The notes under the pieces were generated by a model. It worked only from the letters and a program-made list of their open reading frames with translations, had not been told where the DNA came from and ran no database searches. 64,000 bases of DNA from Escherichia phage kaset, in the sequence record PV245935.1. One strand, 5' to 3'. Of this stretch, positions 23,364-50,597 are shown one piece after another (within the stretch, counting starts at the first letter, position 1; each line of letters opens with the position of its first letter). Position numbers and translations under genes: made by a program.

Positions 23364-23369
23364 GGAACT

Positions 23370-29529: not shown

Positions 29530-30504
29530 TTAAAAATACTCCATATCGGTAATATCACGGAAGCATTTATACAAGGCAGAGCGCGGCACGTCAACGATGC
29601 CAAAGTTGAAGAATTTATATGTCAGATACTTGTTGCGATAATTCTCGCGATTCTCCCAAAGCATTTTTCTCTCTGCCATAGGCATTGAACCAGCGGAGAC
29701 GCGGAAAGGAATCATTTCACCTTTCTCATCAACATATTTTGGATTGACAACCACAAATGATCCAAGGTATCCTTTTGCAACTAAGCCTTCAGCCTCTTTC
29801 GAACGCTTAGTGCGACCCAACTCATCAATGAATGCTTCGTTGTTGTTCTCCATCATCTCAACGAAGTCTATGATCAGTCCTTCTTCATCGGTCCACGGCT
29901 TGTCCTTCCACACATCACGTGACTTTGGCGTCGCGCGACCATGCTTGTATTTGCCCGTCCAAGACTTGCCATACAAGCCTTCATAGCCAAGTTGGTCTGC
30001 TTCGATTTGCATTGCCGCGTACTGTTCCATATTTTCGATGTTGCGATATTCGAGAGCGCGAAGGAATGGACGTCGGCCATGGTCAATGAGATATTGATTG
30101 ACCTCAGCAACGCGTCGATTATACTGCTCATAACGTGCCGAGAAAGGCAAATCAGGTTCGCTAAAGTCATCAAACACCCACCATGTGAAGTTTGTTATAG
30201 CATCGGTATTCATGCAGGCGGTATAGGCTTGCTGCATTACGTTCTTATCATTCGGATTGCCGTCAATAAGCTCTCCATCAAGGCCGTGAATCAATTCACC
30301 CAAAAAGAGGAACTCTTTTTTAATCTGGACGTTTCGAAGCGCCATGCCGGACGTACCCATTGGCAAGTTGTCATACGCCATCGCGCGTATGCCATCGACC
30401 TTGAAGGACAACCCGCAAGGCAGCGGCACATCTTCGCCACGCTCGATAATTTGTTTACGCTGGCAACCTTTCATTGGTTTTAATGCTTTGATTTCCCCTG
30501 CCAT
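29530..30504 (-). CDS. ATP-dependent DNA ligase
   Basis: 324 aa; adenylation motif KVDGIR (KxDGxR). Confidence 0.8.
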   Translation of the reverse strand: MAGEIKALKPMKGCQRKQIIERGEDVPLPCGLSFKVDGIRAMAYDNLPMGTSGMALRNVQIKKEFLFLGELIHGLDGELIDGNPNDKNVMQQAYTACMNTDAITNFTWWVFDDFSEPDLPFSARYEQYNRRVAEVNQYLIDHGRRPFLRALEYRNIENMEQYAAMQIEADQLGYEGLYGKSWTGKYKHGRATPKSRDVWKDKPWTDEEGLIIDFVEMMENNNEAFIDELGRTKRSKEAEGLVAKGYLGSFVVVNPKYVDEKGEMIPFRVSAGSMPMAERKMLWENRENYRNKYLTYKFFNFGIVDVPRSALYKCFRDITDMEYF

Positions 30505-31669: not shown

Positions 31670-32530
31670 TTAAAACTCTTCTGCGTCGGTCGGAGTTTCA
31701 TTGACAGGACCAGCGGCACCACTTGCTTCTTCCTGCTTGCTGCGGTCAATGTTAACGTTGCCGCCAACTACGTCGTTGTGGAACGCTTTGGCGACTTCGT
31801 ACAGGCCTTTGTCCTGCACCAGACCTTCCAGCTCAAACTTCAGGACGGACCAGGTGTTGCCGTCTTTGGACTGAGACGCAGTACCCATGCGAACGATGTT
31901 CATGAAGGTCGGCGGCATTTTCAGGCCCTGCGGAGTCTGAACTTTCTTCTGCTGCAGCGCGGTCATCAGCATGCGAGACGGCTTGATCATGGAAGAAGTC
32001 AGAGACAGCATTGCGCTACCAAATTCACCAGTTTCTTCGTTCAACAGGATCACAAAGTGGTTACGTGTATCTGCGTAGTAAGGTGATTTCTTCTCGTGCA
32101 CCTTGCCGTTTTCGTCTGGAACAAACACCTTACCGTTGATCTCAACAGCGCGGCCTGCCGCGACTTCTGCATCAACGTGCTCTTTGGTAAATTCACCTTT
32201 AAAGCCTTTATCGTCGGACTCGCGACCGCCCCAAAGGATGAAGGTGCGTTTGAATGCACAAGGGATGATCTGCACGCCTTTCTTGCCGTCATACAATTCA
32301 CCAGTAACGGTATTGTACAACATACCAGCTTTTGCGCCAGGAACGTGTTTTGGATCATCTTCGTCGACCATCGGAGACATCTTTTGCAGTACGACGATAA
32401 AAGGAATGGCATAAGCGTCGGCATCGGCACCTTCAAAACCAGCGCCAAAATCGGTCATATCGACAAAATCAGCCATAGCGGACATCTGGGTGTTTTTCAC
32501 TGCAACTTCGGTAGTTTCTTTCTTAGACAT
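31670..32530 (-). CDS. putative ssDNA-binding protein (acidic C-terminal tail)
   Basis: 286 aa ending in acidic tail ...ETPTDAEEF, as in T7 gp2.5-type SSBs; within replication module. Confidence 0.35.
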   Translation of the reverse strand: MSKKETTEVAVKNTQMSAMADFVDMTDFGAGFEGADADAYAIPFIVVLQKMSPMVDEDDPKHVPGAKAGMLYNTVTGELYDGKKGVQIIPCAFKRTFILWGGRESDDKGFKGEFTKEHVDAEVAAGRAVEINGKVFVPDENGKVHEKKSPYYADTRNHFVILLNEETGEFGSAMLSLTSSMIKPSRMLMTALQQKKVQTPQGLKMPPTFMNIVRMGTASQSKDGNTWSVLKFELEGLVQDKGLYEVAKAFHNDVVGGNVNIDRSKQEEASGAAGPVNETPTDAEEF

Positions 32531-32589
32531 TTGATGTTTTCCTATAGTATCAAGTTTCGTGGCAACCTGATTTCAAGATAAAGGTTAAA

Positions 32590-33147
32590 TTACTTTTTGC
32601 TTTTAGGCAAGGTTATTTTAGCTTCTTTATACTCAAAGACGCTAATATCTTCACTGACTGGATTACCCGCTTCCAGCTGTTCTTTTACGAATGACTTCAG
32701 TGTAGCAGAATGAACGCCTTGTTTCAACGTGGCTTCAATACCGTCTTCACGCAGCGCGGCAACAATCTCTTGCGCTTGCTCGATTTCTTCGCGACCGAAC
32801 TCAGCCGTGACGCTGGACTTGATCAAGCCGCCGTAACCGTTGTTGACAAGCCAATCGAATACTTTCAATTCATTTTCTTTCTTAATTGAAGCATTGACTT
32901 TTGACTCGACCTTGATTTTGGTCTTGTCTTCAAGCTTGATTTCGGACACGCCAAGCTCATCCATAACGCCAGGAAGCAGAACAGTTTTGATTTCACTGAT
33001 GCGCTGCTTTTGCATATCAGCTTCATCTTCAAGCTCTGTCAAAGCTTCTTGGCGTTCTGCCAATTCCGATACTAAGCGCGCAAGGCGCTCTTGGATGCTC
33101 TCAGGAGCGACCTGCGGCAAATCATCTTCCCAATTAATATTGCTCAT
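32590..33147 (-). CDS. hypothetical replication/recombination-associated protein
   Basis: 185 aa, coiled-coil N-terminus; start lies in copy 1 of a 52-bp tandem duplication. Confidence 0.45.
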   Translation of the reverse strand: MSNINWEDDLPQVAPESIQERLARLVSELAERQEALTELEDEADMQKQRISEIKTVLLPGVMDELGVSEIKLEDKTKIKVESKVNASIKKENELKVFDWLVNNGYGGLIKSSVTAEFGREEIEQAQEIVAALREDGIEATLKQGVHSATLKSFVKEQLEAGNPVSEDISVFEYKEAKITLPKSKK

Positions 33148-33533: not shown

Positions 33534-35057
33534 TTAATTCATCTTTTTGCCGTCGAGGATGTGATCAGCAAGCATAGACTTCATACTTAGTGAACGCTGA
33601 ATTTCTTCATCGATGGTGTCAACACCAATAAAATCAACATACAACACGCTTGATTTGGTGCCGATGCGGTGATTTCGGTCTTCGGATTGCTTGCGCAACT
33701 CGTTGTCGTAGTTGCAAGAATAATAAATTGCCAAGTCAGCGGCTGTAAGCGTGATGCCGATGCCTGCCGCAGCAGCGTGGCAGACCAATACTTGTGTTCC
33801 ACCATTCTCGACTGTGTTTTTCTGGAAGTCATCAATCAAGAACTCACGCTGCTCTTTTGACGTTTCACCGTTGTATACACCCGTGACCACGCCTTCAGAC
33901 TCAAGCCAATCCTTAATCTGGTTCATCTCTTCCTTAAAGATGGCCCAAACAATGAACTTGCGCTCTGGGTCGTCTTCCAGCACCCCTTCCACATAATCCT
34001 TAAAGGCCGTGAATCGTGGGTTGTCTTCCATGTAGACCATCTCATCATACACCTTAACAAAACCGGATGTCACCTGCTTCATCTTAGTGCGCGACGCGAT
34101 CATCTCAAACTTGACGTTTTCTTCTTCGCCCTTGTATTCCATCAAATAGTTGTACTCATTCTTGAGTTCATCGTAAACATCGCGTTGTTTAGGCGACAAC
34201 TCGAAGTCAATAAACTTGTACACCTTCTCTGGAAGGTCAGGCAAGTATTCTGCTTTTGTTGCACGAAAATAGTGCGGTTCCATCAGCCGGATAAGCTTGT
34301 CAAGGTTCTTGTACATCGGTCGGCCAAACTGGTCTTTGCGCGGCACTTGCGGAATCCCATAGCCATTGCCGCCGATTTTCTTGAGGATGGCTTGCATCTC
34401 TGGGTCGTGCGCTTCAAGCAGCACAGTGAATTCAGAGTTGAAGGCGCGGAAAGATTTGGTGCCGAGCAATCCTGCTTCAAGGAAGTGATATTGCATGTAA
34501 ATATCAGCAGGCGAGCGCGGCAACGGCGTGCCAGAAAGGATTCGACGGGCCTTTGCCAGCCGTCCCAATTCCACAACCTTGATGGAGCGTTTGGCTGTGT
34601 TATTCTTGATGCGCGTTGATTCGTCGATGATCATCAGGCAGCGGTACTTCTTCAAGACCGACTCGATGTGTTGATAACCGACTGGTGTGTTGACAGTATC
34701 GATGTTGAATGAGAAGATGCGCGCAGGCACTTCGCCTTCGGGGTAGTGATCAGCAAACATCTTCTCCCAAAGCGCCTTGCCCTTTTTAGTTTTCATCTTA
34801 TCATTGCCGCGCCAGTAGTGCCCAATCCACTTGATGGAAAGGTGTTCTGGTGCTTCACGACGAATCCAGTTTGAGTGGACGCCGTTTGGAGCGATGACGA
34901 CCATGGCATCGAACGCGCCAGCGGTGAAGTGCTTTTCAAACTCTGCCAAAGCGGTCCAAGTTTTACCAAGACCCTGTTCCATAAAATAGGCAAAGTATTT
35001 TCTGCGGCCTGCTTTATCAAGCGCCAATAGTTGGTGGCGCATTCCTTGTGTTTTCAT
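33534..35057 (-). CDS. SNF2-family (DEAD/DEAH-like) helicase
   Basis: 507 aa; GLGKT Walker A, IIDESTRIKN DExx box, LSGTPLPRSP motif, C-terminal QSEDRNHRIG. Confidence 0.75.
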   Translation of the reverse strand: MKTQGMRHQLLALDKAGRRKYFAYFMEQGLGKTWTALAEFEKHFTAGAFDAMVVIAPNGVHSNWIRREAPEHLSIKWIGHYWRGNDKMKTKKGKALWEKMFADHYPEGEVPARIFSFNIDTVNTPVGYQHIESVLKKYRCLMIIDESTRIKNNTAKRSIKVVELGRLAKARRILSGTPLPRSPADIYMQYHFLEAGLLGTKSFRAFNSEFTVLLEAHDPEMQAILKKIGGNGYGIPQVPRKDQFGRPMYKNLDKLIRLMEPHYFRATKAEYLPDLPEKVYKFIDFELSPKQRDVYDELKNEYNYLMEYKGEEENVKFEMIASRTKMKQVTSGFVKVYDEMVYMEDNPRFTAFKDYVEGVLEDDPERKFIVWAIFKEEMNQIKDWLESEGVVTGVYNGETSKEQREFLIDDFQKNTVENGGTQVLVCHAAAAGIGITLTAADLAIYYSCNYDNELRKQSEDRNHRIGTKSSVLYVDFIGVDTIDEEIQRSLSMKSMLADHILDGKKMN

Positions 35058-35476
35058 GACAATTCCTCTAAATACTTAATGATGTGATGAATAGTTCCCT
35101 TCACGATTATCTCACGTTGAACGTCTGCAATATTATAACGCTTTAATTCAATCGAAGGGTGGACTAAATAAAACATCTTCTCAGAATCGACTTTAAGCAA
35201 AACAAATGATGGGTATTTCCAATCATTCCACGAAGAAAGAAAGCTGCACTGACCTTTCTCAAATGCATTTCTGAAAGGTGCAGTGGTAGCCCTTGCAGGC
35301 CACGATTCAAAGAACTTCATTTCAAGCCAAAAGCCGCGCCCTTTCCGGTTGGTGCCGATTACATCCGGCACACCATCACCCGTCATGGATTCGATTCTTT
35401 GAAGCTTCAATACTGATTCCGAATGCTTCTTCAAAGGTACGAATATGTATTTCTGTTCACGGTTGTTTGTTGCCAT
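35054..35476 (-). CDS. VRR-NUC domain nuclease (putative)
   Basis: about 140 aa; GVPDVIG...GFWLEMKF pattern of PD-(D/E)xK VRR-NUC; 5' end overlaps DnaE-like gene so an internal start was chosen. Confidence 0.45.
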   Translation of the reverse strand: MATNNREQKYIFVPLKKHSESVLKLQRIESMTGDGVPDVIGTNRKGRGFWLEMKFFESWPARATTAPFRNAFEKGQCSFLSSWNDWKYPSFVLLKVDSEKMFYLVHPSIELKRYNIADVQREIIVKGTIHHIIKYLEELS

Positions 35477-38360
35477 CTGGATACACCTGTTTGATAACGT
35501 CGACGATGAACATGTCAATGCCTTCAAGTTTGCGACCTTTCATCAGGAAGAATGCACCGTTCCCGACGTTCTCTGCAATGTACTTCCCGTACTTCTGGAA
35601 CTTCTCTGGGCGAATCCTGAAACGCATTGGCGAATCGGTCGAATCGTCTTTGCACATAAGGTCGATGAACTGAGTTTCAAGCTTGTTTCCATACTGGTCA
35701 AACTCTGCGTAGCGGCCATCGGCCTGAAGACCCTTTTTAAGTTTGCCGTGCTTTGTATAAATGCCGCGCTCAAGACGTTTACGGATTCGTGTTGCTTCGT
35801 TCTCGTCTGCCAGCACTTTCTTGGTCAACTTGCCGATTACTATTGCACGCTCATCATCGCCTACTTCCTTCATCTGGCGTATTGAAGCACCGGAAGTAAC
35901 GCCAATCAGATAGGGGTCATTATACGCCCAGCCGAACTTGGTGTGCATCTCTGTAAGGTCGCCGTATTTGACTTCAGCATTGGCCAATGCATCCTTTTGC
36001 TTTTGCGTTAAGGTTCCGGCTTCACGTGCTTCGATATACTTCATCGCCTTCACCATTCCGTACCCTTTAGCGTTCATGATGCCGCCGATTAGCTTTCCGT
36101 TAGCGATGGTCCAGTTCATTGAAGAGTGATCAGGGTCGATTGGCACATAATCCACGCCTTCCTTCGCAAGTTCACGTAATATCGCAATCGTCTGGTCTTC
36201 GTCCTTAGCAGCGCGTAAGCAGGCAGCGGCAAATTCCAACGGGTAGTGTCGTTTAAGCCACAAGGTCCAGTAGGTCACGACCGCGTATGATACGGAGTGT
36301 GACTTGTTAAAGCCCCATGACCCGAACGTCGCCATCGCTTGCCAAAGCTTTCTTGCATCCGCTTCCGGTACGCCGTTATTTATTGCGCCTGCAACGAAGT
36401 CTTCGCCAAGCTTGTTAAAGTATTCCTCACCCTTACGGCCTGACATCGCCTTACGTACAGCGGATGTCTTCGCCCAGTCAAATGAACCAATCTCTTTCAC
36501 CACGGCCATGATTTGCTCTTGGTAAAGAAACACGCCGTAAGTCTCTTTTAAGTACGGCTCAAGCTGCGGCACGTCGTACTCAATCGGCGCACGTCCTGCC
36601 GCGCGTTCAATGTATTTCTGGGCCATACCGGATGACAACGGGCCAGGTCGACCAAGTGCTGTCAGGTTATCGATTTTGTTAAAGTTATCAACGTGCACAA
36701 AGTTGGTTACTGAGCGTACAGCATCGCCTTCGAACTGGAAGATGCCTGACATCTTATTTTCGTTAAGGATGTCAAGGACGCTTTGATCATTGAGCTTGAT
36801 TCCGTACAGCGTTTCAGCATCTATCACGCCAGTATCGGAAATTATTCCGAGTGTGCGGAGGCCCAGCGCATCAAGCTTCAAAAGGTTAAGGTATTCGCTG
36901 TCAGGCTTATCAATTTGCGCAATCCCTTCCGCCGTTACCGTACAGTAATCAGAGATTGGATCATTACACACGATGATTCCCGCTGCGTGAACGCCAGTGT
37001 GGGAAGGGTGAATCTCAAGGTCACCCATGCATCGCGCGGCGTCAGGATATTTCGCCACGAACTCTTGGCCCGTGGTCGTGGTTGCAAAGGTATCCTCCAG
37101 GCCGTGACCATAACGGGCGTCACCGGATGAGTATTCAAGCAATGCGTTTTTAATGTTGGCCGTTTCGTGATAGCCGATGTTGAACTTCTTACCAACCTGA
37201 GCCATTACTGAGTTGGCCTTAAGCGTGTTGATGTTGCCAAGTTTTGCAACGTTCATTTCGCCGTATTTTTCTTTAAGGTAATCAAACACCATATAGCGTT
37301 TGGTATCCTCAAAGTCAATATCAATATCAGGAAGGTCGGCGCGGCTTACGTCGATGAATCGGGCAAACAACAGCTTATACGGGATTGGGTCAACTTCCGT
37401 GATGCCGAGACAATAGCAAACCAGTGAACCAGCCGATGAGCCGCGAGCGGGTCCGACGAGCATTTTTGTCTTTGCGAATCGTACAAGGTCTGCTACCACC
37501 AGAAAGTATGAGTCGAAATCTTTCAGCTGAATCTGGTGAATCTCTTCGTTGAATCGGTCCTCATATTCCTGAGTCCATTCTTTGATGTGGCCTGCCTTGA
37601 GGCGGTACTCCATCCCCTCACGAGCAAGTTTAACCATGTCACCAGCAAGGTGAATAATCGGTGCCTTGCGCAACTTCAGGCCAAGCCCCACGATTCCGTT
37701 TGCGATATCAACAGCATTGGACGTTGCTTGATTCAACTCATCTTCGGTAAGGATTCCTTCAAGCTGTTTTCGCAAGTCTTCCGCGTCAACGATGCAATGC
37801 GGCTTAACTGTGTCGCGAACTTCCCACGCATAAGCAAAGTCGACGTGCTCAGGTGAAGGCATATGGTTGTATCCGGTTAAAACCAGCGGCCTTCCGTTGC
37901 TGCGGTGAGCCAATGCCTGGCGCTTAGCCAAAAGGAACGATGATGGGTTGACGTCTATATAATCGTAGTCCTCTGGCAGCAGCAACTCCACGGCACCGCC
38001 ACAGAATTTAACGACTCCATCGAGCGCCCCGAACTCTGCACGGGTCAGTCCGCCGCGCTGTGTTGCAAGTGTCGTAGCGTTGTAAAAAGATTTCAGGTCA
38101 AGGGCCAATATCCAAGCCTTCGGTTTGAATCCCTTTTTCGGGTCCGCATCAGGGTCAATGATTGGAATCTCCATGCCGAACATAGGCTTGATATCATTCT
38201 TCTGACATTCCTTTTCCCAGCGAACGTGACCCCATGTATTGTTGTCAACTAATGCCGCGACTTCGCAGCCCAACTCTTTGAGCCGTGCTATAATTTCAGG
38301 ATGCCGTCCATATACTTCTTTGAACGTGTAACCGCTGCGAACTCTCAATTGTGGAAACAT
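35457..38360 (-). CDS. dnaE: DNA polymerase III alpha subunit-like replicative polymerase (DnaE family)
   Basis: 967 aa; N-terminal PHP-like region; palm motif GPARGSSAGSLVCYCLGITEVDP. Confidence 0.85.
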   Translation of the reverse strand: MFPQLRVRSGYTFKEVYGRHPEIIARLKELGCEVAALVDNNTWGHVRWEKECQKNDIKPMFGMEIPIIDPDADPKKGFKPKAWILALDLKSFYNATTLATQRGGLTRAEFGALDGVVKFCGGAVELLLPEDYDYIDVNPSSFLLAKRQALAHRSNGRPLVLTGYNHMPSPEHVDFAYAWEVRDTVKPHCIVDAEDLRKQLEGILTEDELNQATSNAVDIANGIVGLGLKLRKAPIIHLAGDMVKLAREGMEYRLKAGHIKEWTQEYEDRFNEEIHQIQLKDFDSYFLVVADLVRFAKTKMLVGPARGSSAGSLVCYCLGITEVDPIPYKLLFARFIDVSRADLPDIDIDFEDTKRYMVFDYLKEKYGEMNVAKLGNINTLKANSVMAQVGKKFNIGYHETANIKNALLEYSSGDARYGHGLEDTFATTTTGQEFVAKYPDAARCMGDLEIHPSHTGVHAAGIIVCNDPISDYCTVTAEGIAQIDKPDSEYLNLLKLDALGLRTLGIISDTGVIDAETLYGIKLNDQSVLDILNENKMSGIFQFEGDAVRSVTNFVHVDNFNKIDNLTALGRPGPLSSGMAQKYIERAAGRAPIEYDVPQLEPYLKETYGVFLYQEQIMAVVKEIGSFDWAKTSAVRKAMSGRKGEEYFNKLGEDFVAGAINNGVPEADARKLWQAMATFGSWGFNKSHSVSYAVVTYWTLWLKRHYPLEFAAACLRAAKDEDQTIAILRELAKEGVDYVPIDPDHSSMNWTIANGKLIGGIMNAKGYGMVKAMKYIEAREAGTLTQKQKDALANAEVKYGDLTEMHTKFGWAYNDPYLIGVTSGASIRQMKEVGDDERAIVIGKLTKKVLADENEATRIRKRLERGIYTKHGKLKKGLQADGRYAEFDQYGNKLETQFIDLMCKDDSTDSPMRFRIRPEKFQKYGKYIAENVGNGAFFLMKGRKLEGIDMFIVDVIKQVYPDGNKQP

Positions 38361-38902
38361 TATTTACTCCATATGTCATATACGCCAATTTGTTGGCAGA
38401 CTTTGTGCAGTAATATTACGTCGTCTAATGCACGGTGCTTCTGTTCATATTTTCCGAAATATAATTCATACAACTCTTGAAGCTTAACTCTTCGGCCAAA
38501 AATAGGCAAGGTTTGCTCGACTGTACAAATGTTTATTTCTGGAAAATTAACATCACCAAGTGTAAGACCTTCGCGCTGTAATGCATAGTCAAGAATGTTT
38601 TTATCAAACGCATGGTTGTGCGCGATAGTTGCATCCGTCTTCTTGAATATTTCTTTTAGCTGCGGAACGAAATGAATAAATGGTGGATTGCACTCAAGGT
38701 CTTCGTTGGTTAATCCGGTAATCTTCGTGATGATTTCTTCAATCACAATTTCAGGATTAATTATGAACTCGAACGTTTCAAGAATCTCTTTGCCGTCCGT
38801 CAACAGGCCTGCAAATTCAATAGGGCGCGGCTGCATTCCAAGCGGCGCTTTCGGGTGCACGGTTAATCCGGTTGTTTCGAAGTCATAAGGGAGAAATAAC
38901 AC
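38360..38902 (-). CDS. DnaQ-like 3'-5' exonuclease (DEDDh)
   Basis: 180 aa; Exo I YDFETTG, Exo II IAHNHAFD, Exo III HRALDDV; 1-nt overlap with DnaE-like gene start. Confidence 0.8.
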   Translation of the reverse strand: MLFLPYDFETTGLTVHPKAPLGMQPRPIEFAGLLTDGKEILETFEFIINPEIVIEEIITKITGLTNEDLECNPPFIHFVPQLKEIFKKTDATIAHNHAFDKNILDYALQREGLTLGDVNFPEINICTVEQTLPIFGRRVKLQELYELYFGKYEQKHRALDDVILLHKVCQQIGVYDIWSK

Positions 38903-38913
38903 ATTGGCCTCCT

Positions 38914-38940
38914 ACAAAAAGGCCGCCCATTAGGACGGCC
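38914..38940 (-). terminator. hairpin plus U-tract (attenuator/terminator) upstream of exonuclease gene
   Basis: on minus strand GGCCGUCC-UAAU-GGGCGGCC then UUUUUG, then AGGAGG RBS. Confidence 0.35.
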
Positions 38941-38956
38941 ACAGATTCAAGATTCG

Positions 38957-39508
38957 TTATGCAGTGTACGGAGTGCCGTCTTGATTCAACCGCACGATGA
39001 ATTTAAGGTCTACACCGATGATTTCACGCGTATCAAAGATCACATAGTTGTAACGACGCTGACCAGCAATATTTGGGTTGGTGTGAGAGTCAGTTACGAC
39101 TTCCTGCGCAACCTGAATGCCTTCTTCTTTAAAGAACTTACGCCATTCAGCAAGTTCAGCGACAGTCACGTGCATACCAAGATGGCTGACCTGATTATCG
39201 TGCGCATCGAGCATGTCGATGTTTTCGTTGATCCAGTTGCAACCTTTTGTGTAGTCAAGAATTTCAAGTTCAAGAGGCTTGCCAGCGCCGCCATCGGTGC
39301 CGTTGCCAGCCTGATAGTTGAAGCGCAAGTCAGCTTCATTGGTGCAATCGTCGCGACGACCTTTAAATTCATCAGCTTCAAATACGCGACCAGTAGCAAC
39401 AACATGATCATGGAACCATTCTGTCAGGCCGATTTTGGCCAGAAAATCCTGTGCACGCTGAGCATCTGGAATTGACAGGGCGATTTGTTCAATTTTAAAG
39501 TGTGGCAT
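38957..39508 (-). CDS. hypothetical protein (possible VOC/glyoxalase-like fold)
   Basis: 183 aa; tentative fold assignment from His/Glu spacing only. Confidence 0.3.
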   Translation of the reverse strand: MPHFKIEQIALSIPDAQRAQDFLAKIGLTEWFHDHVVATGRVFEADEFKGRRDDCTNEADLRFNYQAGNGTDGGAGKPLELEILDYTKGCNWINENIDMLDAHDNQVSHLGMHVTVAELAEWRKFFKEEGIQVAQEVVTDSHTNPNIAGQRRYNYVIFDTREIIGVDLKFIVRLNQDGTPYTA

Positions 39509-39747: not shown

Positions 39748-40431
39748 TTATTTCCCAAATGGAATATCAGTACCAGACATAAAGCGCCATGCGCCCGTAA
39801 TTAAGATATGGCGAATGAAGTCAGCAATTACTTGCGGCTCAGTCTCCAATCCATTCATCAACGCCTTTTTCTGGTATTCAGCAGCATACTCAGGAGTCCA
39901 GCCGCGAGTCGCGCAAACAGCATCTTCAATCTGTTTAGACATACCAGTGCCGCGCAACTTGTTAGGACTAATAGAGAATACCGTGATCCCGTATTTAGGC
40001 GTAAGTTCGTGGGCCATCTGCTTACTGATCATAAGCGCAGCGGCCTTGGAAGCATTATAACACAAGCTGGACGTCATAGGAATATGCGCAGCGTTGGAAA
40101 CGATATTGATCACAAAACCTTTGTTGTCGATAAGACTTTTCAGTGTCGCCTGAGTCGTGTTAACGAAAGAGAAAGCGTTGGTATGCATAACGCGGTTAAA
40201 TTCTTCGTAGTTGACATCTTCAAACCAGTTGTTGGAGTTTACGCCAGCACAGTTGATCAAGCCTTCTACATCATATGGGCTTAAAATTTCTTTCATCTGT
40301 TTAGCGTCGCGGACGTCATATCCGTATGCTGAATCGATGCCAAGCACGTTATGACCGTAAGCGCCAAGGGTGTCAAAAATAGATTTACCAAGACCAGAAT
40401 TGGAACCTGTTACAACAATTACTTTTTTCAT
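39748..40431 (-). CDS. short-chain dehydrogenase/reductase (SDR)
   Basis: 227 aa; Rossmann motif VVTGSNSGLGKS, NCAGV, catalytic YNASK (YxxxK). Confidence 0.75.
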   Translation of the reverse strand: MKKVIVVTGSNSGLGKSIFDTLGAYGHNVLGIDSAYGYDVRDAKQMKEILSPYDVEGLINCAGVNSNNWFEDVNYEEFNRVMHTNAFSFVNTTQATLKSLIDNKGFVINIVSNAAHIPMTSSLCYNASKAAALMISKQMAHELTPKYGITVFSISPNKLRGTGMSKQIEDAVCATRGWTPEYAAEYQKKALMNGLETEPQVIADFIRHILITGAWRFMSGTDIPFGK

Positions 40432-42736: not shown

Positions 42737-43732
42737 TTATTTATTGGCAATATAAGCAAATTTTTGATAGTTATTTGCTTTGATGAGTTTTTCAACTTCA
42801 ACAAGGTCATGAGCGACGTCATCAAGCAAAATGTTGCGCCAGGTAGCGAATCGACCAACACTAAACACGTTCAAATCCATAGTCAGCTGCAGGAGTAGGG
42901 CGTGTCGCAAGTCTTTCGGAATGTCGACAATCTTGCCATATTTCTGGTCGACCTTTTCAACTTCTTCAAGAGCAATGTCACTCCATGAAAGGCCAAAGGC
43001 CGTCAACACTTCGTCGACTTCTGCGCGAAGCTTTATGTCACGGTAACGAGTGATGCCGCCAGCGGCTTCAACTGCAGCTTCACTTACGCTGACCAAAGGA
43101 ATTGTTTCAATGATAAGCGTGTCACCAGTAATTGATGCGCGGTAAGTTCTGACTGAGTAGTCAGGGAAGTAAATTGTTTGATACAACTCACACTTACGTT
43201 TAATCTTAAAGCGGTAAACACGAATGTTTGCTTTATCAAATGAGAAATCAAGCTTTTGATCAATCCCAGCAAGCTTCAGCATGACTGGCAGCGGCGATGT
43301 GTTGATGATTGGCGTCTCGCTATAGCCGCAAAGAGTATCAACCGGAGTATTAAAGAATATGCGGTCACCCAGTTTGTCGACAAGCTGATCATAAAAGTCA
43401 TCAGGCGCAATATAACGCGTTGCAGTTTTAAGCTTCATGATTGAACGGCTGCCAAACTGATTGGTGACCTTCATGGAATACATATTGGCAAGGTTAATTG
43501 GGCAATGGTCGTGGTAGTAGTTGCCGCGAAAATACACAGCCTTGTCAACTGTCACGGCCTTAAAGGGGATTCCGGTAATACGGCTTACTTCTTCGCCACG
43601 GAAGCGTAGCAACGCCTTGTGCTGTTGCGCCCGTTCCCCTGCTTCGTACACAATAGAGTTCGGGAAGTGACACGCTGTGATAAGTCCTGCCAGTCCGCCG
43701 CCGATAATCATTACAGGTTGTTTCATGTTCAT
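42737..43732 (-). CDS. FAD/NAD(P)-binding oxidoreductase
   Basis: 331 aa; N-terminal dinucleotide-binding motif VMIIGGGLAGL. Confidence 0.5.
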   Translation of the reverse strand: MNMKQPVMIIGGGLAGLITACHFPNSIVYEAGERAQQHKALLRFRGEEVSRITGIPFKAVTVDKAVYFRGNYYHDHCPINLANMYSMKVTNQFGSRSIMKLKTATRYIAPDDFYDQLVDKLGDRIFFNTPVDTLCGYSETPIINTSPLPVMLKLAGIDQKLDFSFDKANIRVYRFKIKRKCELYQTIYFPDYSVRTYRASITGDTLIIETIPLVSVSEAAVEAAGGITRYRDIKLRAEVDEVLTAFGLSWSDIALEEVEKVDQKYGKIVDIPKDLRHALLLQLTMDLNVFSVGRFATWRNILLDDVAHDLVEVEKLIKANNYQKFAYIANK

Positions 43733-43864: not shown

Positions 43865-44710
43865 TTATTCCGCTTGATCACCGTCTTCGGCATCGTCGTT
43901 GGATTCAACATCGACAAACTCGATGTGGCCCATCTCTTCCAGCTTGCTCAGGTAGGAGCGAACGGAAGCGCCAAACAGTTGATCTTTAACTTTTTCGCCC
44001 AGCTCATCGATAGACTGCGCCACGCCAACTTCGCCTTCTTTGATCGCCGCTAGAACGCGTCCACGGGTGGAATGCTCTTGCGGCTGGCTCAGGCCATTGC
44101 CAGTGTAGATGAAGTGGGTTGCTTTTGCACGACGCTGACCGTTTGCCTTTTTAGCAGCCTTACGTTCTGCGATGGCTTTGCGACGTTCTTCAGCTTCTTG
44201 CTTACGCTGTTCTTTCTGCTGTTCTGCAGCTTCTTTTGCCGCAATCTTAGCAGCTTCACGCTCTGCCTTGCGTTTCGCTTTAGCTTCTTCTTTGGCCTTC
44301 TCTTTTTCGGCCTTCGCTGCAGCACGGGCTTGATCACGCTCTGCTTTCTTAGCAGCAGCTTGTTCAGCTTTCAGGCGCTTGGCTTCTTCTTTAGCCTTTG
44401 CCTTTTCGATTTCTTTCGCTGCTTTAGCGGCTTCACGCTCTGCTTTCTTAGCAGCAGCCTTTTCTGCGCGCTCTTTGGCCTTCTTAGCTGCTTCTTCAGC
44501 ACGCTTCTGAGCCTTCTCATCAGCAGCCTGCTTGCGTTTCAGTGCAGCTTCTTCACGCTTGGCTTGTTTTTCCTGCTCACGCTTCTGGCGTTTTTCTTCG
44601 GCTTCTTTCTTTTTAGCCAGGCGTTTTTCTTCAGCCACGCGACGACGTTCTGCTGCAGCTGCTTGTTTTTCTTCTTTAGATAATACTTTGATTGCTTCGG
44701 CCATGTTCAC
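43865..44710 (-). CDS. Lys/Ala/Glu-rich helical-repeat protein with C-terminal winged-helix-like domain
   Basis: 281 aa; ~200 aa of KAE/R-rich low-complexity helix (TolA domain II-like) then ~80 aa globular C-terminus. Confidence 0.55.
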   Translation of the reverse strand: MNMAEAIKVLSKEEKQAAAAERRRVAEEKRLAKKKEAEEKRQKREQEKQAKREEAALKRKQAADEKAQKRAEEAAKKAKERAEKAAAKKAEREAAKAAKEIEKAKAKEEAKRLKAEQAAAKKAERDQARAAAKAEKEKAKEEAKAKRKAEREAAKIAAKEAAEQQKEQRKQEAEERRKAIAERKAAKKANGQRRAKATHFIYTGNGLSQPQEHSTRGRVLAAIKEGEVGVAQSIDELGEKVKDQLFGASVRSYLSKLEEMGHIEFVDVESNDDAEDGDQAE

Positions 44711-44863: not shown

Positions 44864-46048
44864 TTAACGCGCTTTCAAATCACGGTACACGGTCAGATTC
44901 TTTTTAGCGCGGGTGATGGCGGTGTACATCATCTTGGAGTACGGAACGCCGCGCAAGATTTCTTCCAGCACGCACACATTGTCCCACTCGCTGCCTTGCG
45001 ATTTGTGCACCGTTATGACATAGCCATAGTCCATGCCTCCAACAGCGCGTTGGGCCTCTTTGCGCACTTCCTGATCAGTAGAGAAGGAAAGAGGATTTAT
45101 CTTCACCTTTATATCTTTGCCATCGGTAAGCGAGCGCAAATTGACATACATTATTTCATTGGACTCGTCTTCATCCCTTTCAAAGTCCGGTACTGGCTCA
45201 TAACTAATAACAATCCCTTGCTCGCCATTACAGAATCCTGGACCGTGTTGGTTGAATGTGCAAATAACTTTCTCGCCGATTCCTGGCATTGGCGTTATAC
45301 GTCCGCTCACTTGGCGCAATAATGAATTCCATTTATCTTTGGTGCTATTATATGAGCAAATAATTTGATCATCTTCGCCCATGAATTTCTTCAACGCAGT
45401 AACGCGCGGCGATTCAGCCAAAACCTTGACGTCATCGTATTCACGCGGAGGAAGTCGGTTGCCCTGTCGCACGAAGAAGGAAGCGCGGATTATGTTTGAC
45501 TCTTTTCCTTGCCGCATGATTTCGGTTAACAGTACGTCAACGGCATCTTCAGTAAAGTAGGCGGCGGCTTTTACCGGAGGGACTTGTCCAATGTCGCCTA
45601 ATGCCAGAACAGGGATGCGGTGATCAAGAAGGCGCTCTGTGTCCCACTCGCCAACCATTGAAGCTTCATCAAGGACGACAAGATGCGGCCTTTCATCAAG
45701 CGTTGACTTCCTTGCAAAGATTGGTTCATTGTCATCGTTAACGCCGCGCACGTTATAGATGAACTGATGAAGGGTCTTAGCGCCACGACACCCTTTCTGC
45801 TTCAATCGGCTGGCGGCCTTTCCGGTCGGCGCAATATAAATGGCACCGTACTCACCGACACAACGGCGCACAATCTCACGCGCAATAGATGTTTTACCTG
45901 TTCCTGCATAGCCAGCGATGAAAAACACGCGCTTCGTTGTTTTACCGTCCTGCAATCGCTTGTACCATGCAACGGCCTTTTCGATGGCATCAATTTGTTG
46001 CGCGTTGAACTGAATCACTGGCTCATTATTAAATTCTGGAATGTTCAT
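44864..46048 (-). CDS. dda: Dda/RecD-like SF1 DNA helicase
   Basis: 394 aa; Walker A GYAGTGKTS, HLVVLDEASM, TVHKSQGSEWDNV, YTAITRAKKNL. Confidence 0.8.
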   Translation of the reverse strand: MNIPEFNNEPVIQFNAQQIDAIEKAVAWYKRLQDGKTTKRVFFIAGYAGTGKTSIAREIVRRCVGEYGAIYIAPTGKAASRLKQKGCRGAKTLHQFIYNVRGVNDDNEPIFARKSTLDERPHLVVLDEASMVGEWDTERLLDHRIPVLALGDIGQVPPVKAAAYFTEDAVDVLLTEIMRQGKESNIIRASFFVRQGNRLPPREYDDVKVLAESPRVTALKKFMGEDDQIICSYNSTKDKWNSLLRQVSGRITPMPGIGEKVICTFNQHGPGFCNGEQGIVISYEPVPDFERDEDESNEIMYVNLRSLTDGKDIKVKINPLSFSTDQEVRKEAQRAVGGMDYGYVITVHKSQGSEWDNVCVLEEILRGVPYSKMMYTAITRAKKNLTVYRDLKAR

Positions 46049-46374: not shown

Positions 46375-46477
46375 TTCAGGCGACCTTTGTTAGTGCGGAA
46401 ATATTTTCTGATAGTATAATTGCAGATATAGTATAAAGCAAAGTAAATCGAAATTGTGAACTAAATGGTAAATATTG

Positions 46478-46505
46478 TTGACTTTGTATCACTCAATATT
46501 ATACT
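46478..46505 (+). promoter_or_regulatory. sigma70-like promoter for rightward early operon
   Basis: TTGACT-N16-TATACT, 30 bp upstream of ATG 46535. Confidence 0.45.
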
Positions 46506-46534
46506 GCAGGTATTGATCACCGAAGGAAAGAAAG

Positions 46535-47617
46535 ATGGCTAGTTTAAGAGAAGAAGCAAAAATAATCGAAGAGTTTTTGACGGAACTCCAAAGAGGCATT
46601 CCAGAAGATGAACGCGTCATGACTGTGTTTGCGCCTGAAGCAACGGTGCAGACCGACGAGCGCGGCAAAAAGATTAACAGCAGCTTCTGGCCTAAGCCTT
46701 GGAAGCTTGGCAAGCCGCTGATGCAACATCAGAACGGTTACGCCTGCATAAGTTCAATGCGCAAGTCTCCCAACCCAAAGACAGGCGAGATGCGATACTG
46801 GCGCACGGAATCGGCTTTCGGTCATGGCATGGCAATGATGGTCGACGACATCGGACACGGTAAAGGGTCAAAGGGCGATTTAGATTTGGAGTTCTTTTTC
46901 GAGCGTCTGAAGCCAACCGTTATCGTTGAGACTTCACCGAACAACCATCAGCTGTGGTACTTCTTTAAAGAACCGATTGACCATCTTATTCAGTTCAAAG
47001 CATTCCTTGGGTCTTTCGTAAACATGGTACTCAAGAAGGGCGGCGACAACACGATTAAAGACGTGACGCGCGTGGGCCGTGTTCCTGGGTGCATCAACAA
47101 TAAGCGTGTGACTCACGACGGCCCCTATAAATATGTCGATGAGAACGGCGACCCGTTCCGCTGCCGACTTGTTCATGCAGACTATTCTTTGCGCTACACA
47201 ATCGAAGAGATTTGCCAAGCATTCGGTTTCCACGTCGTTATGCCGCAAAAGCGTGAAATTCAAATCGACGTTGACGAATACAAATATGACGCTGTTTGGT
47301 ATAAGATAGCCCAGCAAATCCTTGCGCGCAATAAGATGGGCGAAGGGTCCGATGGCGATGTGGTTGAAAACATGTCAGGTAAATGCCGCATCATCTGTCC
47401 TTGGGGTGAAGAGCACACCAACGGCGACCCATACGGCGCTTATTTTCGCGGCCCAATCCCTGGCGCTGAACATGAATTCGTTTTCGGTTGCGCTCACGAC
47501 TGTCACCGGAAAGGGGAAGGCAAGAAAGGCTGGACCGCTTTTGTTGAAGCAGTAGTCATGCCTTATATTGAGAATCAACTTGATATGATAAATCGTCGCG
47601 CAGGTGGCATAAAATAG
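46535..47617 (+). CDS. primase-polymerase-like protein (AEP family) with C-terminal zinc-binding region
   Basis: 360 aa; MVDDIGHG (DxD-like), NHQLWYF (His motif), Cys/His cluster CRIICPWGEEH...CAHDCH. Confidence 0.5.
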   Translation: MASLREEAKIIEEFLTELQRGIPEDERVMTVFAPEATVQTDERGKKINSSFWPKPWKLGKPLMQHQNGYACISSMRKSPNPKTGEMRYWRTESAFGHGMAMMVDDIGHGKGSKGDLDLEFFFERLKPTVIVETSPNNHQLWYFFKEPIDHLIQFKAFLGSFVNMVLKKGGDNTIKDVTRVGRVPGCINNKRVTHDGPYKYVDENGDPFRCRLVHADYSLRYTIEEICQAFGFHVVMPQKREIQIDVDEYKYDAVWYKIAQQILARNKMGEGSDGDVVENMSGKCRIICPWGEEHTNGDPYGAYFRGPIPGAEHEFVFGCAHDCHRKGEGKKGWTAFVEAVVMPYIENQLDMINRRAGGIK

Positions 47618-48398: not shown

Positions 48399-48503
48399 AT
48401 GAAAGCCGTAAAGAAATACACATTAATCATTTCCCTTGTTATCATCCTGGGGCTATTATATGTATTGGATATGGCATATTATTTGGCAGGGGTGAGTAAA
48501 TGA
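48399..48503 (+). CDS. small hydrophobic peptide (34 aa)
   Basis: MKAVKKYTLIISLVIILGLLYVLDMAYYLAGVSK; stop overlaps next ATG (ATGA); weak RBS. Confidence 0.3.
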   Translation: MKAVKKYTLIISLVIILGLLYVLDMAYYLAGVSK

Positions 48504-48790
48504 ATATTGTAATTCTTTATGGTGAGAATATCAGCGATGACGACATCGAAGTTGCCGTTGATGTTTACGGTATCGATGAGGTGAAACGTGTTGAAGAAAT
48601 TAATGGCGCAAATCTTAACGAGATTGTCAAAGAAGCTGGTTGCCCTTCGGAAGAGATTCTGGTGGTTACTAACGATGACCTGTCTTCTATGGATTGTTTG
48701 CGCCGCATCTTCACCGATTGCCAATACCTTCATGCTGTTCAGTCAGTAAACAAATTGAGAAAGACATACGCTGACCAATTTCCTTGCTGA
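48500..48790 (+). CDS. hypothetical protein
   Basis: 96 aa acidic protein. Confidence 0.4.
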   Translation: MNIVILYGENISDDDIEVAVDVYGIDEVKRVEEINGANLNEIVKEAGCPSEEILVVTNDDLSSMDCLRRIFTDCQYLHAVQSVNKLRKTYADQFPC

Positions 48791-48926: not shown

Positions 48927-50597
48927 ATGTCAATTGAACATGACAATCTTCCAGAGGATACAGGTGATGAATTTGGTGCAATCTTTGACGAAATTCAAGA
49001 TGCTGGTGTTTCAGAAGAAATGCAAGCGGCAGAGCAGCAAGGCACCAGAGCTAAAATAAGCCTTCAGCACAAGGCTGTTGAGAAAGATGCAGAGCGCATG
49101 GAATGCTACGGTGAAGAAGACTTGGTTGAAAGAGCACGTTTGCTCGCCTCACTTCAGGTAATCAAGTTCCCTCACTACAAACCGACGAAAGATGATTTTG
49201 TTCTTCAGGCGGACCGGACGAGTGACATGAACCGTTATGCGGTTTTCGACGCGTTGTTTGATAAGGGAAGCGGCATCGTCCCATTCCCTCACAAAGATAC
49301 TTTTCGTGGACGCTTAGTCGACCATCGCGGCGAAACATTCACCGACCGGACATTGGAAGTCACAGAGATAGTTGCCGCTGTCGACGCAGCAGGTCTGTCC
49401 AACCCAAACTCACGTCAGGTCGCTCAATCCTATAAGGAATGGGCCATGCGTTATCAGCGCGACGACCTGATGGACTTCTTCTACAAGAAGCTGCCTGAAT
49501 GGGACGGTACTGCGCGCATTGAAAAATACCTTATCGAGCTATTCCGACCGTTCGATACAGAGTTAAACCGACAAATCGGTGTGTATTTTTGGCTATCGCT
49601 CTATAACCGCCTGACCAATCCTGGCTGTCAAGCGCCAATCTCCATTGCGCTCATCGGCGGCCAGAACGCAGGGAAGAGTTATTTTAGTAAGCTGCTTTGC
49701 GAAGCTATTATGAACGACCGCCACGCAACACCGATTCCGTTGAACTTGGCCGCGCAAAACTTCAACCCGTTCTTGCGAGCTATTACGGGTCGCTCAATTA
49801 TCGCGAACGTTGGCGAGATGACAGGCTTTAAAAAGGCTGACATCGAAAACATGAAAGCATTCCTGACTAAGACGGAAGATGACCTGGACTTCAAATTTGA
49901 AGATACGCAGGTTAAACCACGCCAGTGGATTGCTATCATGGACGGCAACGAATACGCAGGCATGCAGCGTGACGATACGGGCAACCGTCGTGTGTATCCT
50001 ATCTTTGTTGGCCAACTCGCCGACAAGGACGGGCAACCGAACTGGTCTAAAGACTTCCAAGCTGACCTTTCCACTTTGAAAGAAGACGTTTGGCAGCTGA
50101 TGGCTGAGTGCGCTGCGTGGATGGAGAAGCACGGCGAAGCAGGTTACAACGCCTTTGTTGGTGAAACATCTCGTATGCTTACTGAGTTCAGTAAGAACGA
50201 AATGGAACGTGCGCGCGGCGTTATCCGTGATGAGATGGTCGACAACGACCTTGTTGAAGTCATCATCACCGCGCCTTATGACCGACATCACAGCGGACGC
50301 TGGCACATCACCAGTGGGGCAATCGCTATGGGATTCAGAGCTAAGTGCGGCAAGTCGCCTTTCTCACGTACCCTTGCGCCGCACATGTCGAAGCTTGGAT
50401 TTGAGCCTGCAACCTATCGCAACCAGCGTGGCTACTTTACGCCGCTGATTAAGAATGAAGCAGGGGAATACATTTCTGACTTGATGACCATCTTAGCGTA
50501 TCTTATTCGCGACGAGTCTGACCCTGAAGATATTGAATTCTTGAAGAAGGTTATTGAACGCAAACGTTCTTTAGGAAGAGATAAGGATGAATTCTGA
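48927..50597 (+). CDS. VirE/D5-like primase-associated P-loop NTPase (putative replicative helicase)
   Basis: 556 aa; Walker A IALIGGQNAGKSY; follows primase gene. Confidence 0.55.
   Translation: MSIEHDNLPEDTGDEFGAIFDEIQDAGVSEEMQAAEQQGTRAKISLQHKAVEKDAERMECYGEEDLVERARLLASLQVIKFPHYKPTKDDFVLQADRTSDMNRYAVFDALFDKGSGIVPFPHKDTFRGRLVDHRGETFTDRTLEVTEIVAAVDAAGLSNPNSRQVAQSYKEWAMRYQRDDLMDFFYKKLPEWDGTARIEKYLIELFRPFDTELNRQIGVYFWLSLYNRLTNPGCQAPISIALIGGQNAGKSYFSKLLCEAIMNDRHATPIPLNLAAQNFNPFLRAITGRSIIANVGEMTGFKKADIENMKAFLTKTEDDLDFKFEDTQVKPRQWIAIMDGNEYAGMQRDDTGNRRVYPIFVGQLADKDGQPNWSKDFQADLSTLKEDVWQLMAECAAWMEKHGEAGYNAFVGETSRMLTEFSKNEMERARGVIRDEMVDNDLVEVIITAPYDRHHSGRWHITSGAIAMGFRAKCGKSPFSRTLAPHMSKLGFEPATYRNQRGYFTPLIKNEAGEYISDLMTILAYLIRDESDPEDIEFLKKVIERKRSLGRDKDEF

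Follow-up and report, generated by a model that had tools for sequence, protein, structure and literature searches.

A predicted two-protein replicase in Escherichia phage kaset: a DnaE-type C-family polymerase and a separate DEDDh exonuclease

RESULTS

Escherichia phage kaset (sequence record PV245935.1) was analysed over a stretch of 64,000 nucleotides, referred to here as the window, and we describe two adjoining genes within it that encode a DNA polymerase and an exonuclease. The pair very probably constitutes the replicase of a Wifcevirus-type E. coli myophage, in which a DnaE-type polymerase is accompanied by a separate, translationally coupled DEDDh proofreader. Two minus-strand open reading frames (ORFs) fill positions 35457-38902, and their ends coincide exactly with those of an initial annotation made from the sequence alone, which had proposed a 967-residue DnaE-family polymerase with an N-terminal PHP-like region and a 180-residue DEDDh exonuclease with all three Exo motifs. 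The coordinates of all features are collected in Table 1.

A C-family polymerase with DnaE topology

Every test run places the large protein in the C family with DnaE topology, and not with PolC or with the A- or B-family polymerases. Pfam detects DNA_pol3_alpha (PF07733) over residues 243-500 (3.1e-63) and DNA_pol3_finger (PF17657) over residues 519-663 (1.7e-37), with no assignment to another polymerase family, and PHROGs matches the full length of the protein to phrog_405, 'DNA polymerase' (5.3e-270). The superfamily model TIGR00594 is the sole NCBIfam model passed (473.7 bits against a cutoff of 434.35). The top-scoring NCBIfam models are DnaE1-type equivalogs, the best being PRK05673 (493.8 bits against a cutoff of 1002), and the PolC models give 41-44 bits against cutoffs of 873-1043. 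A sequence search of the PDB recovers the DnaE proteins of Taq, E. coli and M. tuberculosis at ~1e-84, aligned over residues 209-798 only. These results, together with the structural comparison below, agree with the family originally proposed for the protein.

The polymerase carries ARGSSAGSLVCYCLGITEVDP at residues 305-325. The catalytic aspartates D345 and D347 (LPDIDIDF) and D497 (KLDALG) are invariant in all members of a family alignment (32/32 sequences), and the motifs around them align with MPDIDTDF of Taq and with MPDFDVDF and KFDFLG of E. coli. Identity to E. coli DnaE is 29%.

An AlphaFold2 model built on the family alignment, with a mean predicted local distance difference test score (pLDDT) of 84 and a predicted template-modelling score (pTM) of 0.76, was compared with known structures. 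Foldseek returns M. tuberculosis DnaE1 (7pu7; E=6e-47, template-modelling (TM) score 0.72), then 2hpi and 2hnh (the three together at E 1e-47 to 1e-44), and for PolC an E of only 1e-26; the DnaE proteins of Taq, E. coli and M. tuberculosis superpose on the model at a TM score of ~0.7. The predicted domains are, in order, PHP, the Pol3 core, HhH and, at the C-terminus, an OB fold; a tau-binding domain is absent. In the model the OB fold is C-terminal and the PHP domain has no insertion, which is the order of DnaE, whereas PolC has an N-terminal OB fold and an exonuclease inserted in PHP. The OB fold, as delineated with DSSP, consists of three strands, a helix at residues 918-931 and two further strands; its own Foldseek matches (RPA, Teb1 and OBody) are weak. 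The chain stops at residue 967, 8 residues past the last OB strand, and in the alignment with E. coli DnaE the last ~90 DnaE residues have no counterpart in the phage protein. The position of E. coli QADMF is occupied by a family-conserved GKLTKK.

A separate feature of the C-terminal region is a basic insertion of ~25-30 residues inside the OB fold (residues ~866-895; window ~35670-35765, minus strand), where the confidence of the model is moderate. Within a small alignment only the window and Pantoea phage Kyle carry the insertion; the other aligned relatives, from Luteibacter, Xanthomonas and Burkholderia phages and one metagenomic sequence, lack it. The same two proteins are distinguished by it from those of Pbunavirus.

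Replacement of the PHP metal ligands

The N-terminal PHP fold is found by two methods, although its metal ligands are not conserved. Pfam PHP (PF02811) matches at 8.4e-06 with 26.7 bits, barely over the cutoff of 26.4, and Foldseek matches this region to the PHP domain found in E. coli alpha (4gx9; E=2e-8) and to PHP phosphoesterases. Searched by sequence against the PDB, the N-terminal 241 residues alone gave chance matches only.

The ligand positions compared here are the canonical ones of PHP motifs, and they were placed in the phage protein via the alignment with E. coli DnaE and a weak alignment with Taq. R6 and R8 take the place of the HxH pair, and N40 stands at the next ligand position. 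The further changed positions are W83, G121, H166 and P168, residue 166 being Asp in 28/32 relatives. No family member deviates at R6, R8, W83 or G121, and 31/32 have P168. Canonical ligand chemistry is kept only at E64 and, in most relatives, at Asp166. Because the metal ligands are replaced throughout the family, the sequences make an intrinsic PHP exonuclease in the polymerase appear very unlikely. In the DnaE1 proteins of alpha-, beta- and gamma-proteobacteria a degenerate PHP site goes together with a separate epsilon subunit (PMC3919608), and the replaced ligands of the phage protein fit a dependence on a separate proofreader.

A DEDDh exonuclease without an epsilon-type tail

The small protein is predicted to be a DnaQ-like DEDDh exonuclease, epsilon-like in function, an assignment that stops short of membership of the epsilon orthologous group. 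It matches Pfam RNase_T (PF00929) at 1.6e-21 (77.9 bits against a cutoff of 24) and phrog_192, 'DNA polymerase exonuclease subunit', at 1.9e-37. All three motifs are in place: Exo I as DFETTG (D7, E9), Exo II as HNHAFD (H95, N96, D100) and Exo III as HRALDD (H156, D161). These seven residues are invariant in a family alignment of 26 sequences that includes 24 phage homologs and E. coli DnaQ, and the description of this protein in the initial annotation holds. Identity to DnaQ is 24% by BLASTP over the catalytic domain and 23% over the family alignment.

Translation from the GTG at 38902, preceded by AGGAGG, would yield the complete DEDDh enzyme, and this codon is taken as the start. In the GenBank record of phage Bas99 the exonuclease instead begins at the internal Met23 (22904-23380, equivalent to window 38360-38836), which removes D7 and E9. 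In phage Mansfield a ribosome-binding site is annotated at the position of the window AGGAGG.

The phage exonuclease consists of the catalytic domain only. In the phage proteins only 5-10 residues follow the last core helix (~5 in the window protein), whereas E. coli epsilon runs ~60 residues further and there carries the clamp motif QTSMAF and the alpha-PHP-binding peptide, both absent from the phage protein. Two segments were considered as clamp motifs and rejected: the Tyr of the C-terminal QIGVY aligns to the Tyr that E. coli epsilon has in the final helix of its catalytic domain, and QPRPIEF aligns to strand beta-2. Any contact between exonuclease and polymerase must therefore differ from the contact of E. 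coli alpha with epsilon. Since the epsilon-type tail is missing, the case for a complex is drawn only from adjacency, translational coupling and synteny.

Gene order and translational coupling

The exonuclease had been described as immediately following the polymerase; on the coding strand the exonuclease gene in fact lies upstream, and its stop codon and the polymerase ATG have one base (A) in common, in TAATG. The order on that strand is exonuclease, polymerase, a nuclease resembling Holliday-junction resolvases, and a SNF2 ATPase. The nuclease gene overlaps the 3' end of the polymerase gene by 20 nucleotides and the SNF2 start by ATGA, so that the three joints of the operon (33534-38940, minus strand) are TAATG, the 20-nucleotide overlap and ATGA.

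A terminator-like hairpin lies directly 5' of the ribosome-binding site of the exonuclease, and a terminator is annotated at the equivalent site in Mansfield. The joints suggest that the four genes form one translationally coupled unit, expressed by read-through past the hairpin or from an unrecognised promoter. The order of this coupled operon is conserved in Pbunavirus, where phage KTN6 (gp55/56) has the same succession of exonuclease, polymerase, small nuclease and SNF2/helicase, with ~58% protein identity in the polymerase; the Pbunavirus polymerase is longer, at 1035 residues.

Relatives of the pair

The locus is 94-97% identical in nucleotide sequence to the Wifcevirus phages Mansfield, Ro157lw, FEC19, ECML-117, WFH and WFC (96.8% to Mansfield), and 60-80% identical to many Pbunavirus (PB1-like) phages. 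Over its full 3446 bp the identity to Mansfield, FEC19, ECML-117, WFH and Bas99 is 95-97%; these phages have the ORFs, GTG start, ribosome-binding site and upstream terminator in common with it, and what differences they show are trivial. The window as a whole is 96-97% identical to Wifcevirus phages such as Mansfield, FEC19 and ECML-117. The genes around the locus have the same order in Bas99 and Mansfield, and by identity and synteny the phage belongs to Wifcevirus.

The replicase pair is already annotated in GenBank relatives and has been published for Pbunavirus, so that the finding is correct but known. In Mansfield, CPT_Mansfield_064/065 start as the window genes do and bear the names 'DNA polymerase III alpha' and 'DNA polymerase III epsilon'; the Mansfield polymerase is annotated with 965 residues, compared with 967 here. 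A 2025 paper on the Pbunavirus phage Banzai describes Pol III alpha and epsilon homologs (PBanzai_058/059), a primase and a ligase, and adds to these a SaPI-like self-loading helicase, a Dda-like helicase, a SNF2-like translocase and a Holliday-junction resolvase (PMC12390725). Phage Ro157lw differs in a tandem duplication of ~130 bp in the polymerase gene (equivalent to window 35976-36107), which splits the gene into two annotated ORFs; this could be a real frameshifting event or an assembly artefact.

More widely, 1374 phage-collection records match the polymerase, and the closest protein cluster, 99% identical, has 161 member sequences. The 120 closest polymerase homologs listed span ~870-1230 residues, mostly 930-1040; phage-sized contigs of 60-74 kb carry many of them, and shorter fragments the others. 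Some family members (e.g. P0009, P0103, P0117, P0082) bear strongly acidic C-terminal tails, resembling those that some replication proteins use in partner binding; the window polymerase has none. Two metagenomic homologs are unusually long: P0115 (1232 residues) contains the intein splicing domain PF14890, and in P0095 (1215 residues) the best local alignment covers 71% of the query, suggesting an insertion, with no intein domain on record.

Alternative roles for the two proteins

It is improbable that the 180-residue exonuclease is a free-standing nuclease, serving TREX-like repair, nucleotide salvage or anti-defence, and not a polymerase subunit. Such a role would agree with the absence of the alpha-binding segment and QTSMAF motif of epsilon, and with the top NCBIfam models of the protein, which are generic ones for DEDD, PolC-exonuclease and DinG whose cutoffs it does not reach; Luteibacter phage Pluto has a homolog under the name 'three-prime repair exonuclease I'. 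When a related exonuclease was sought beside the polymerase in two distant phages, none was found annotated in Gordonia phage Bonum, and in Rhizobium phage B1VFA the same-sized ORF upstream of the DnaE gene proved unrelated to the window exonuclease. Against this stand the base shared with the polymerase start codon, the retention of the pairing from Wifcevirus to Pbunavirus, the co-occurrence of exonuclease and polymerase homologs on contigs of ~67-73 kb, and the family-wide dead PHP site, which leaves proofreading to be supplied by another protein.

A DnaE2-like, error-prone or repair role for the polymerase, with host Pol III carrying out bulk synthesis, has very little probability. The succession of PHP, Pol3, HhH and OB without a C-terminal domain (CTD) is the composition of all DnaE2 proteins (PMC3919608), tau- and clamp-binding elements are lacking, and one Pbunavirus homolog (H30) is labelled 'dnaE2: error-prone DNA polymerase' in GenBank. 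The NCBIfam DnaE2 subfamily model, however, gives the protein 330.5 bits against a cutoff of 939, below the 493.8 bits of the best DnaE1-type model. The polymerase is moreover coupled to a proofreading exonuclease, no other DNA polymerase was detected, a complete set of fork genes (primase, helicases, ligase) surrounds it, no member of its strictly lytic phage clade is without it, and the ImuA/ImuB partners were not seen.

That the genes were captured recently from host dnaE and dnaQ, and do not form a phage lineage of their own, is next to inconceivable: both families are of bacterial type and among viruses are confined to bacteriophages (PMC4889955), and lateral transfer from bacteria has been proposed as their origin (PMC3919608), but the identities to DnaE (29%) and DnaQ (23-24%) are low, the domain composition is unlike that of the host proteins, and many of the 120 closest homologs listed sit on phage-sized contigs, so that any transfer was ancient.

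Several results nonetheless weigh against reading the pair as a replicase with its proofreader. The polymerase falls under every DnaE equivalog cutoff, the top ones being reached to about half. The exonuclease scores below the DnaQ-specific models TIGR01406 (43.6 against 222.7) and TIGR00573 (35.3 against 71.5), and has no C-terminal peptide of the kind by which E. coli epsilon contacts PHP. The literature searched held no enzymology of any phage DnaE/C-family polymerase. The lack of clamp elements is itself part of the favoured reading. Three regular expressions for a beta-clamp motif found no match in the polymerase, these being simple patterns that a non-canonical motif could escape. Pfam scans of the non-structural ORFs of the window found no sliding clamp, clamp loader, single-stranded DNA-binding protein (SSB), RNase H or flap nuclease, with the limits that a clamp too diverged for Pfam could go undetected and that the window misses ~4 kb of the genome, a stretch in which Mansfield has a tail fibre gene and small ORFs. 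The whole-genome annotation of the near-identical Mansfield, which was assisted by HHpred, contains no clamp, clamp loader, SSB or primer-removal nuclease either.

Neighbouring replication genes

Matches in Pfam and PHROGs substantiate the other replication genes that had been named as neighbours: the SNF2 helicase, ligase, Dda-like helicase, AEP-type primase and VirE-like NTPase (Table 1). The VapE/VirE-like NTPase is a candidate self-loading replicative helicase and initiator; its Pbunavirus homolog has been interpreted as a SaPI-type self-loading helicase (PMC12390725).

The 140-residue product of the third operon gene appears, from profile and structural comparison, to be a PD-(D/E)xK nuclease like the Holliday-junction resolvases. 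Pfam gave no match to it even at E<=1. Its family invariants are D38, E52, K54 and Q76, and a 60-sequence profile searched against the PDB aligns the E...PD...ExK...Q motifs with those of a VRR-NUC protein (4qbo; E=0.013) and RecU (E=0.016); 2/60 homologs match Pfam VRR_NUC (PF08774), weakly. With the AlphaFold2 model (pLDDT 95), Foldseek places Hjc (2wiw; 1.5e-4) and RecU best and a VRR-NUC protein (4qbn; 3e-3) at rank 15. The earlier label of VRR-NUC nuclease, given to an ORF at 35054-35527, is roughly right at the level of the fold, but Hjc and RecU fit better.

Table 1. Positions and supporting evidence of the features discussed, in window coordinates
Feature	Position	Strand	Evidence
ATP-dependent DNA ligase, KVDG adenylation motif	29530..30504	-	phrog_114 3.7e-41; weak Pfam ligase domains
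SNF2-family ATPase/translocase, 507 aa, last operon gene	33534..35057	-	SNF2-rel_dom 8.6e-22, Helicase_C 5.8e-11, phrog_62 2e-106
Predicted PD-(D/E)xK nuclease, Holliday-junction-resolvase-like, 140 aa, ATG at 35476	35054..35476	-	Profile, AlphaFold2, Foldseek
C-family DnaE-type DNA polymerase, 967 aa	35457..38360	-	Pfam, PHROGs, NCBIfam, PDB, AlphaFold2, Foldseek
Predicted C-terminal OB fold, polymerase aa 838-959	35484..35849	-	DSSP of model
Pol3 core (palm, thumb, fingers), polymerase aa 243-663	36372..37634	-	Pfam and motif alignment
PHP-fold domain, polymerase aa 1-~235, metal-ligand positions replaced	37656..38360	-	Pfam, Foldseek, alignment
Predicted DEDDh 3'-5' exonuclease, 180 aa, DnaQ/epsilon-like	38360..38902	-	Pfam RNase_T, phrog_192, conserved catalytic residues
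Shine-Dalgarno AGGAGG, 5 nt ahead of exonuclease GTG start (38902)	38908..38913	-	Sequence
Terminator-like GC-rich hairpin, GGCCGTCC-TAAT-GGGCGGCC then TTTTT	38921..38940	-	8-bp stem, 7 GC pairs
Dda-like SF1B helicase	44864..46048	-	Pfam AAA_30 2.5e-22, UvrD_C_2 6e-13; phrog_325 4e-99
RepB'-type (AEP-fold) primase	46535..47617	+	Pfam RepB_primase 1.6e-36; phrog_4861 2e-198
VapE/VirE-like P-loop NTPase, Walker A GGQNAGKS	48927..50597	+	Pfam VapE-like_dom 1.6e-28; phrog_4630

The gene set had been called a nearly self-sufficient replisome, to be followed by a search for clamp and clamp-loader genes. That search turned up neither a clamp nor a clamp loader, nor an SSB or a primer-removal nuclease, and the phrase therefore overstates what the phage encodes. 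Host SSB and primer-removal functions are presumably used, possibly with other host factors, and the phage may use the host beta clamp.

Three ORFs were considered as a hidden SSB or clamp and rejected. The 281-residue ORF (43865-44710, minus strand) is a low-complexity protein rich in K, E and A over ~190 residues, followed by a globular C-terminal part of ~80 residues and an acidic tail; it has no Pfam match and 6 homologs by a word-based search. A 148-residue ORF has a signal peptide. The 331-residue ORF (42737-43732, minus strand), beside ThyX and without a Pfam match, has a Mansfield ortholog annotated as UDP-galactopyranose-mutase-like (HHpred 100%), an odd member of a replication and nucleotide-metabolism block.

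Other observations concern the surroundings of the locus. The primase seems to be split: the 360-residue ORF at 46535-47617 (plus strand) holds the RepB' catalytic domain, and a separate 96-residue ORF (48500-48790, plus strand) lies ~900 bp beyond it with several tiny ORFs between, its Mansfield ortholog being annotated as RepB'-like (HHpred to 3H25). Two metabolic genes lie directly 5' of the replicase operon, encoding a glyoxalase-fold protein (38957-39508, minus strand; weak Pfam match) and a FabG-like short-chain dehydrogenase (39748-40431, minus strand). Downstream of the SNF2 gene, two ORFs in 31670-33147 (minus strand) match the Pfam families Pam3_Gp34 (4e-86) and DUF7307/gp33-like (2e-37); homologs of these Pam3-named families thus occur in a cyanophage (Pam3) and in these enterobacterial myophages. 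The cumulative GC skew turns at ~27-28 kb and ~46 kb, where gene orientation flips (plus to minus near 28.5 kb, minus to plus at 46.4 kb), and the intergenic stretch 46375-46534, from which the helicase operon and the primase gene diverge, is a candidate for a control or origin region.

DISCUSSION

In the mechanism that we favour, the 967-residue polymerase would synthesise DNA through the triad D345, D347 and D497, and its PHP domain has lost the metal ligands behind the built-in exonuclease of some DnaE enzymes. As the PHP site of the polymerase appears dead, the DEDDh exonuclease encoded upstream most likely supplies 3'-5' proofreading, probably working in a complex with the polymerase. The family assignments, conserved active sites, domain architecture, coupled operon and retained synteny are shown by the analysis; we infer the physical pairing, and likewise that the polymerase is the sole replicase. 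Processivity would come from phage factors that hold the polymerase at the fork, and not from an assembly like the Pol III holoenzyme; the candidate tethers are the VapE-like helicase, the RepB'-type primase and the Dda-like helicase.

A bolder version of this scheme is offered only tentatively, since we consider it rather less likely to be right than wrong. The alpha-epsilon pair of the PB1-like and Wifcevirus phages might be a minimal C-family replicase that needs neither clamp nor tau, in which the dead but invariant PHP surface (R6, R8, W83) would dock the tail-less DEDDh exonuclease in a manner unlike that of E. coli alpha and epsilon, and the OB/HhH module, or coupling to the VapE-like helicase, would provide processivity. 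Replication of Wifcevirus has been reported to be very fast (BASEL paper), and if the proposal were true, a minimal replicase free of clamp and tau could underlie that speed.

The replication module is ordinary for a described phage genus, and the remaining interest is biochemical. In this family a DnaE core whose PHP site is dead goes with a tail-less proofreader, and tau-binding elements, clamp-binding elements and a phage-encoded clamp are all missing, which raises the question of how such a polymerase copies a genome of ~68 kb within minutes. A compact two-protein C-family replicase could serve as a model system.

Compared with the E. coli Pol III core, the phage pair has in common the Pol3 core with its Asp triad, the degenerate PHP site, the separate DEDDh proofreader, and an HhH and an OB domain that follow the DnaE order. 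It differs in that the polymerase is without the tau-binding CTD and a QADMF-type motif, and theta, beta and clamp-loader partners are absent. The composition of PHP, Pol3, (HhH)2 and OB without a CTD is that of DnaE2 and of the presumed ancestral C-family polymerase (Timinskas et al. 2014, PMC3919608). The window polymerase shares this DnaE2/ancestral composition, yet in sequence it is nearer the DnaE1 models, and unlike DnaE2 it is paired with a proofreader in a replication operon and not set in an ImuA/ImuB mutasome context.

Among viruses, C-family polymerases were found in 28/808 genomes of double-stranded DNA viruses (Kazlauskas and Venclovas 2011, PMC3201878). In the same study the region after the fingers of the phage enzymes was not detectably similar to that of E. 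coli, and a polIII beta homolog was present in just one analysed phage genome encoding a C-family polymerase; phage 0305phi8-36 encodes a beta homolog of its own and shows a candidate motif for clamp binding (PMC3201878). The actinophage 'DnaE-like DNA polymerase III', YorL of Bacillus phage SPbeta and the polymerase of 0305phi8-36 have the Pol3 core in common with the window polymerase, at 26-38% identity over about half of the protein.

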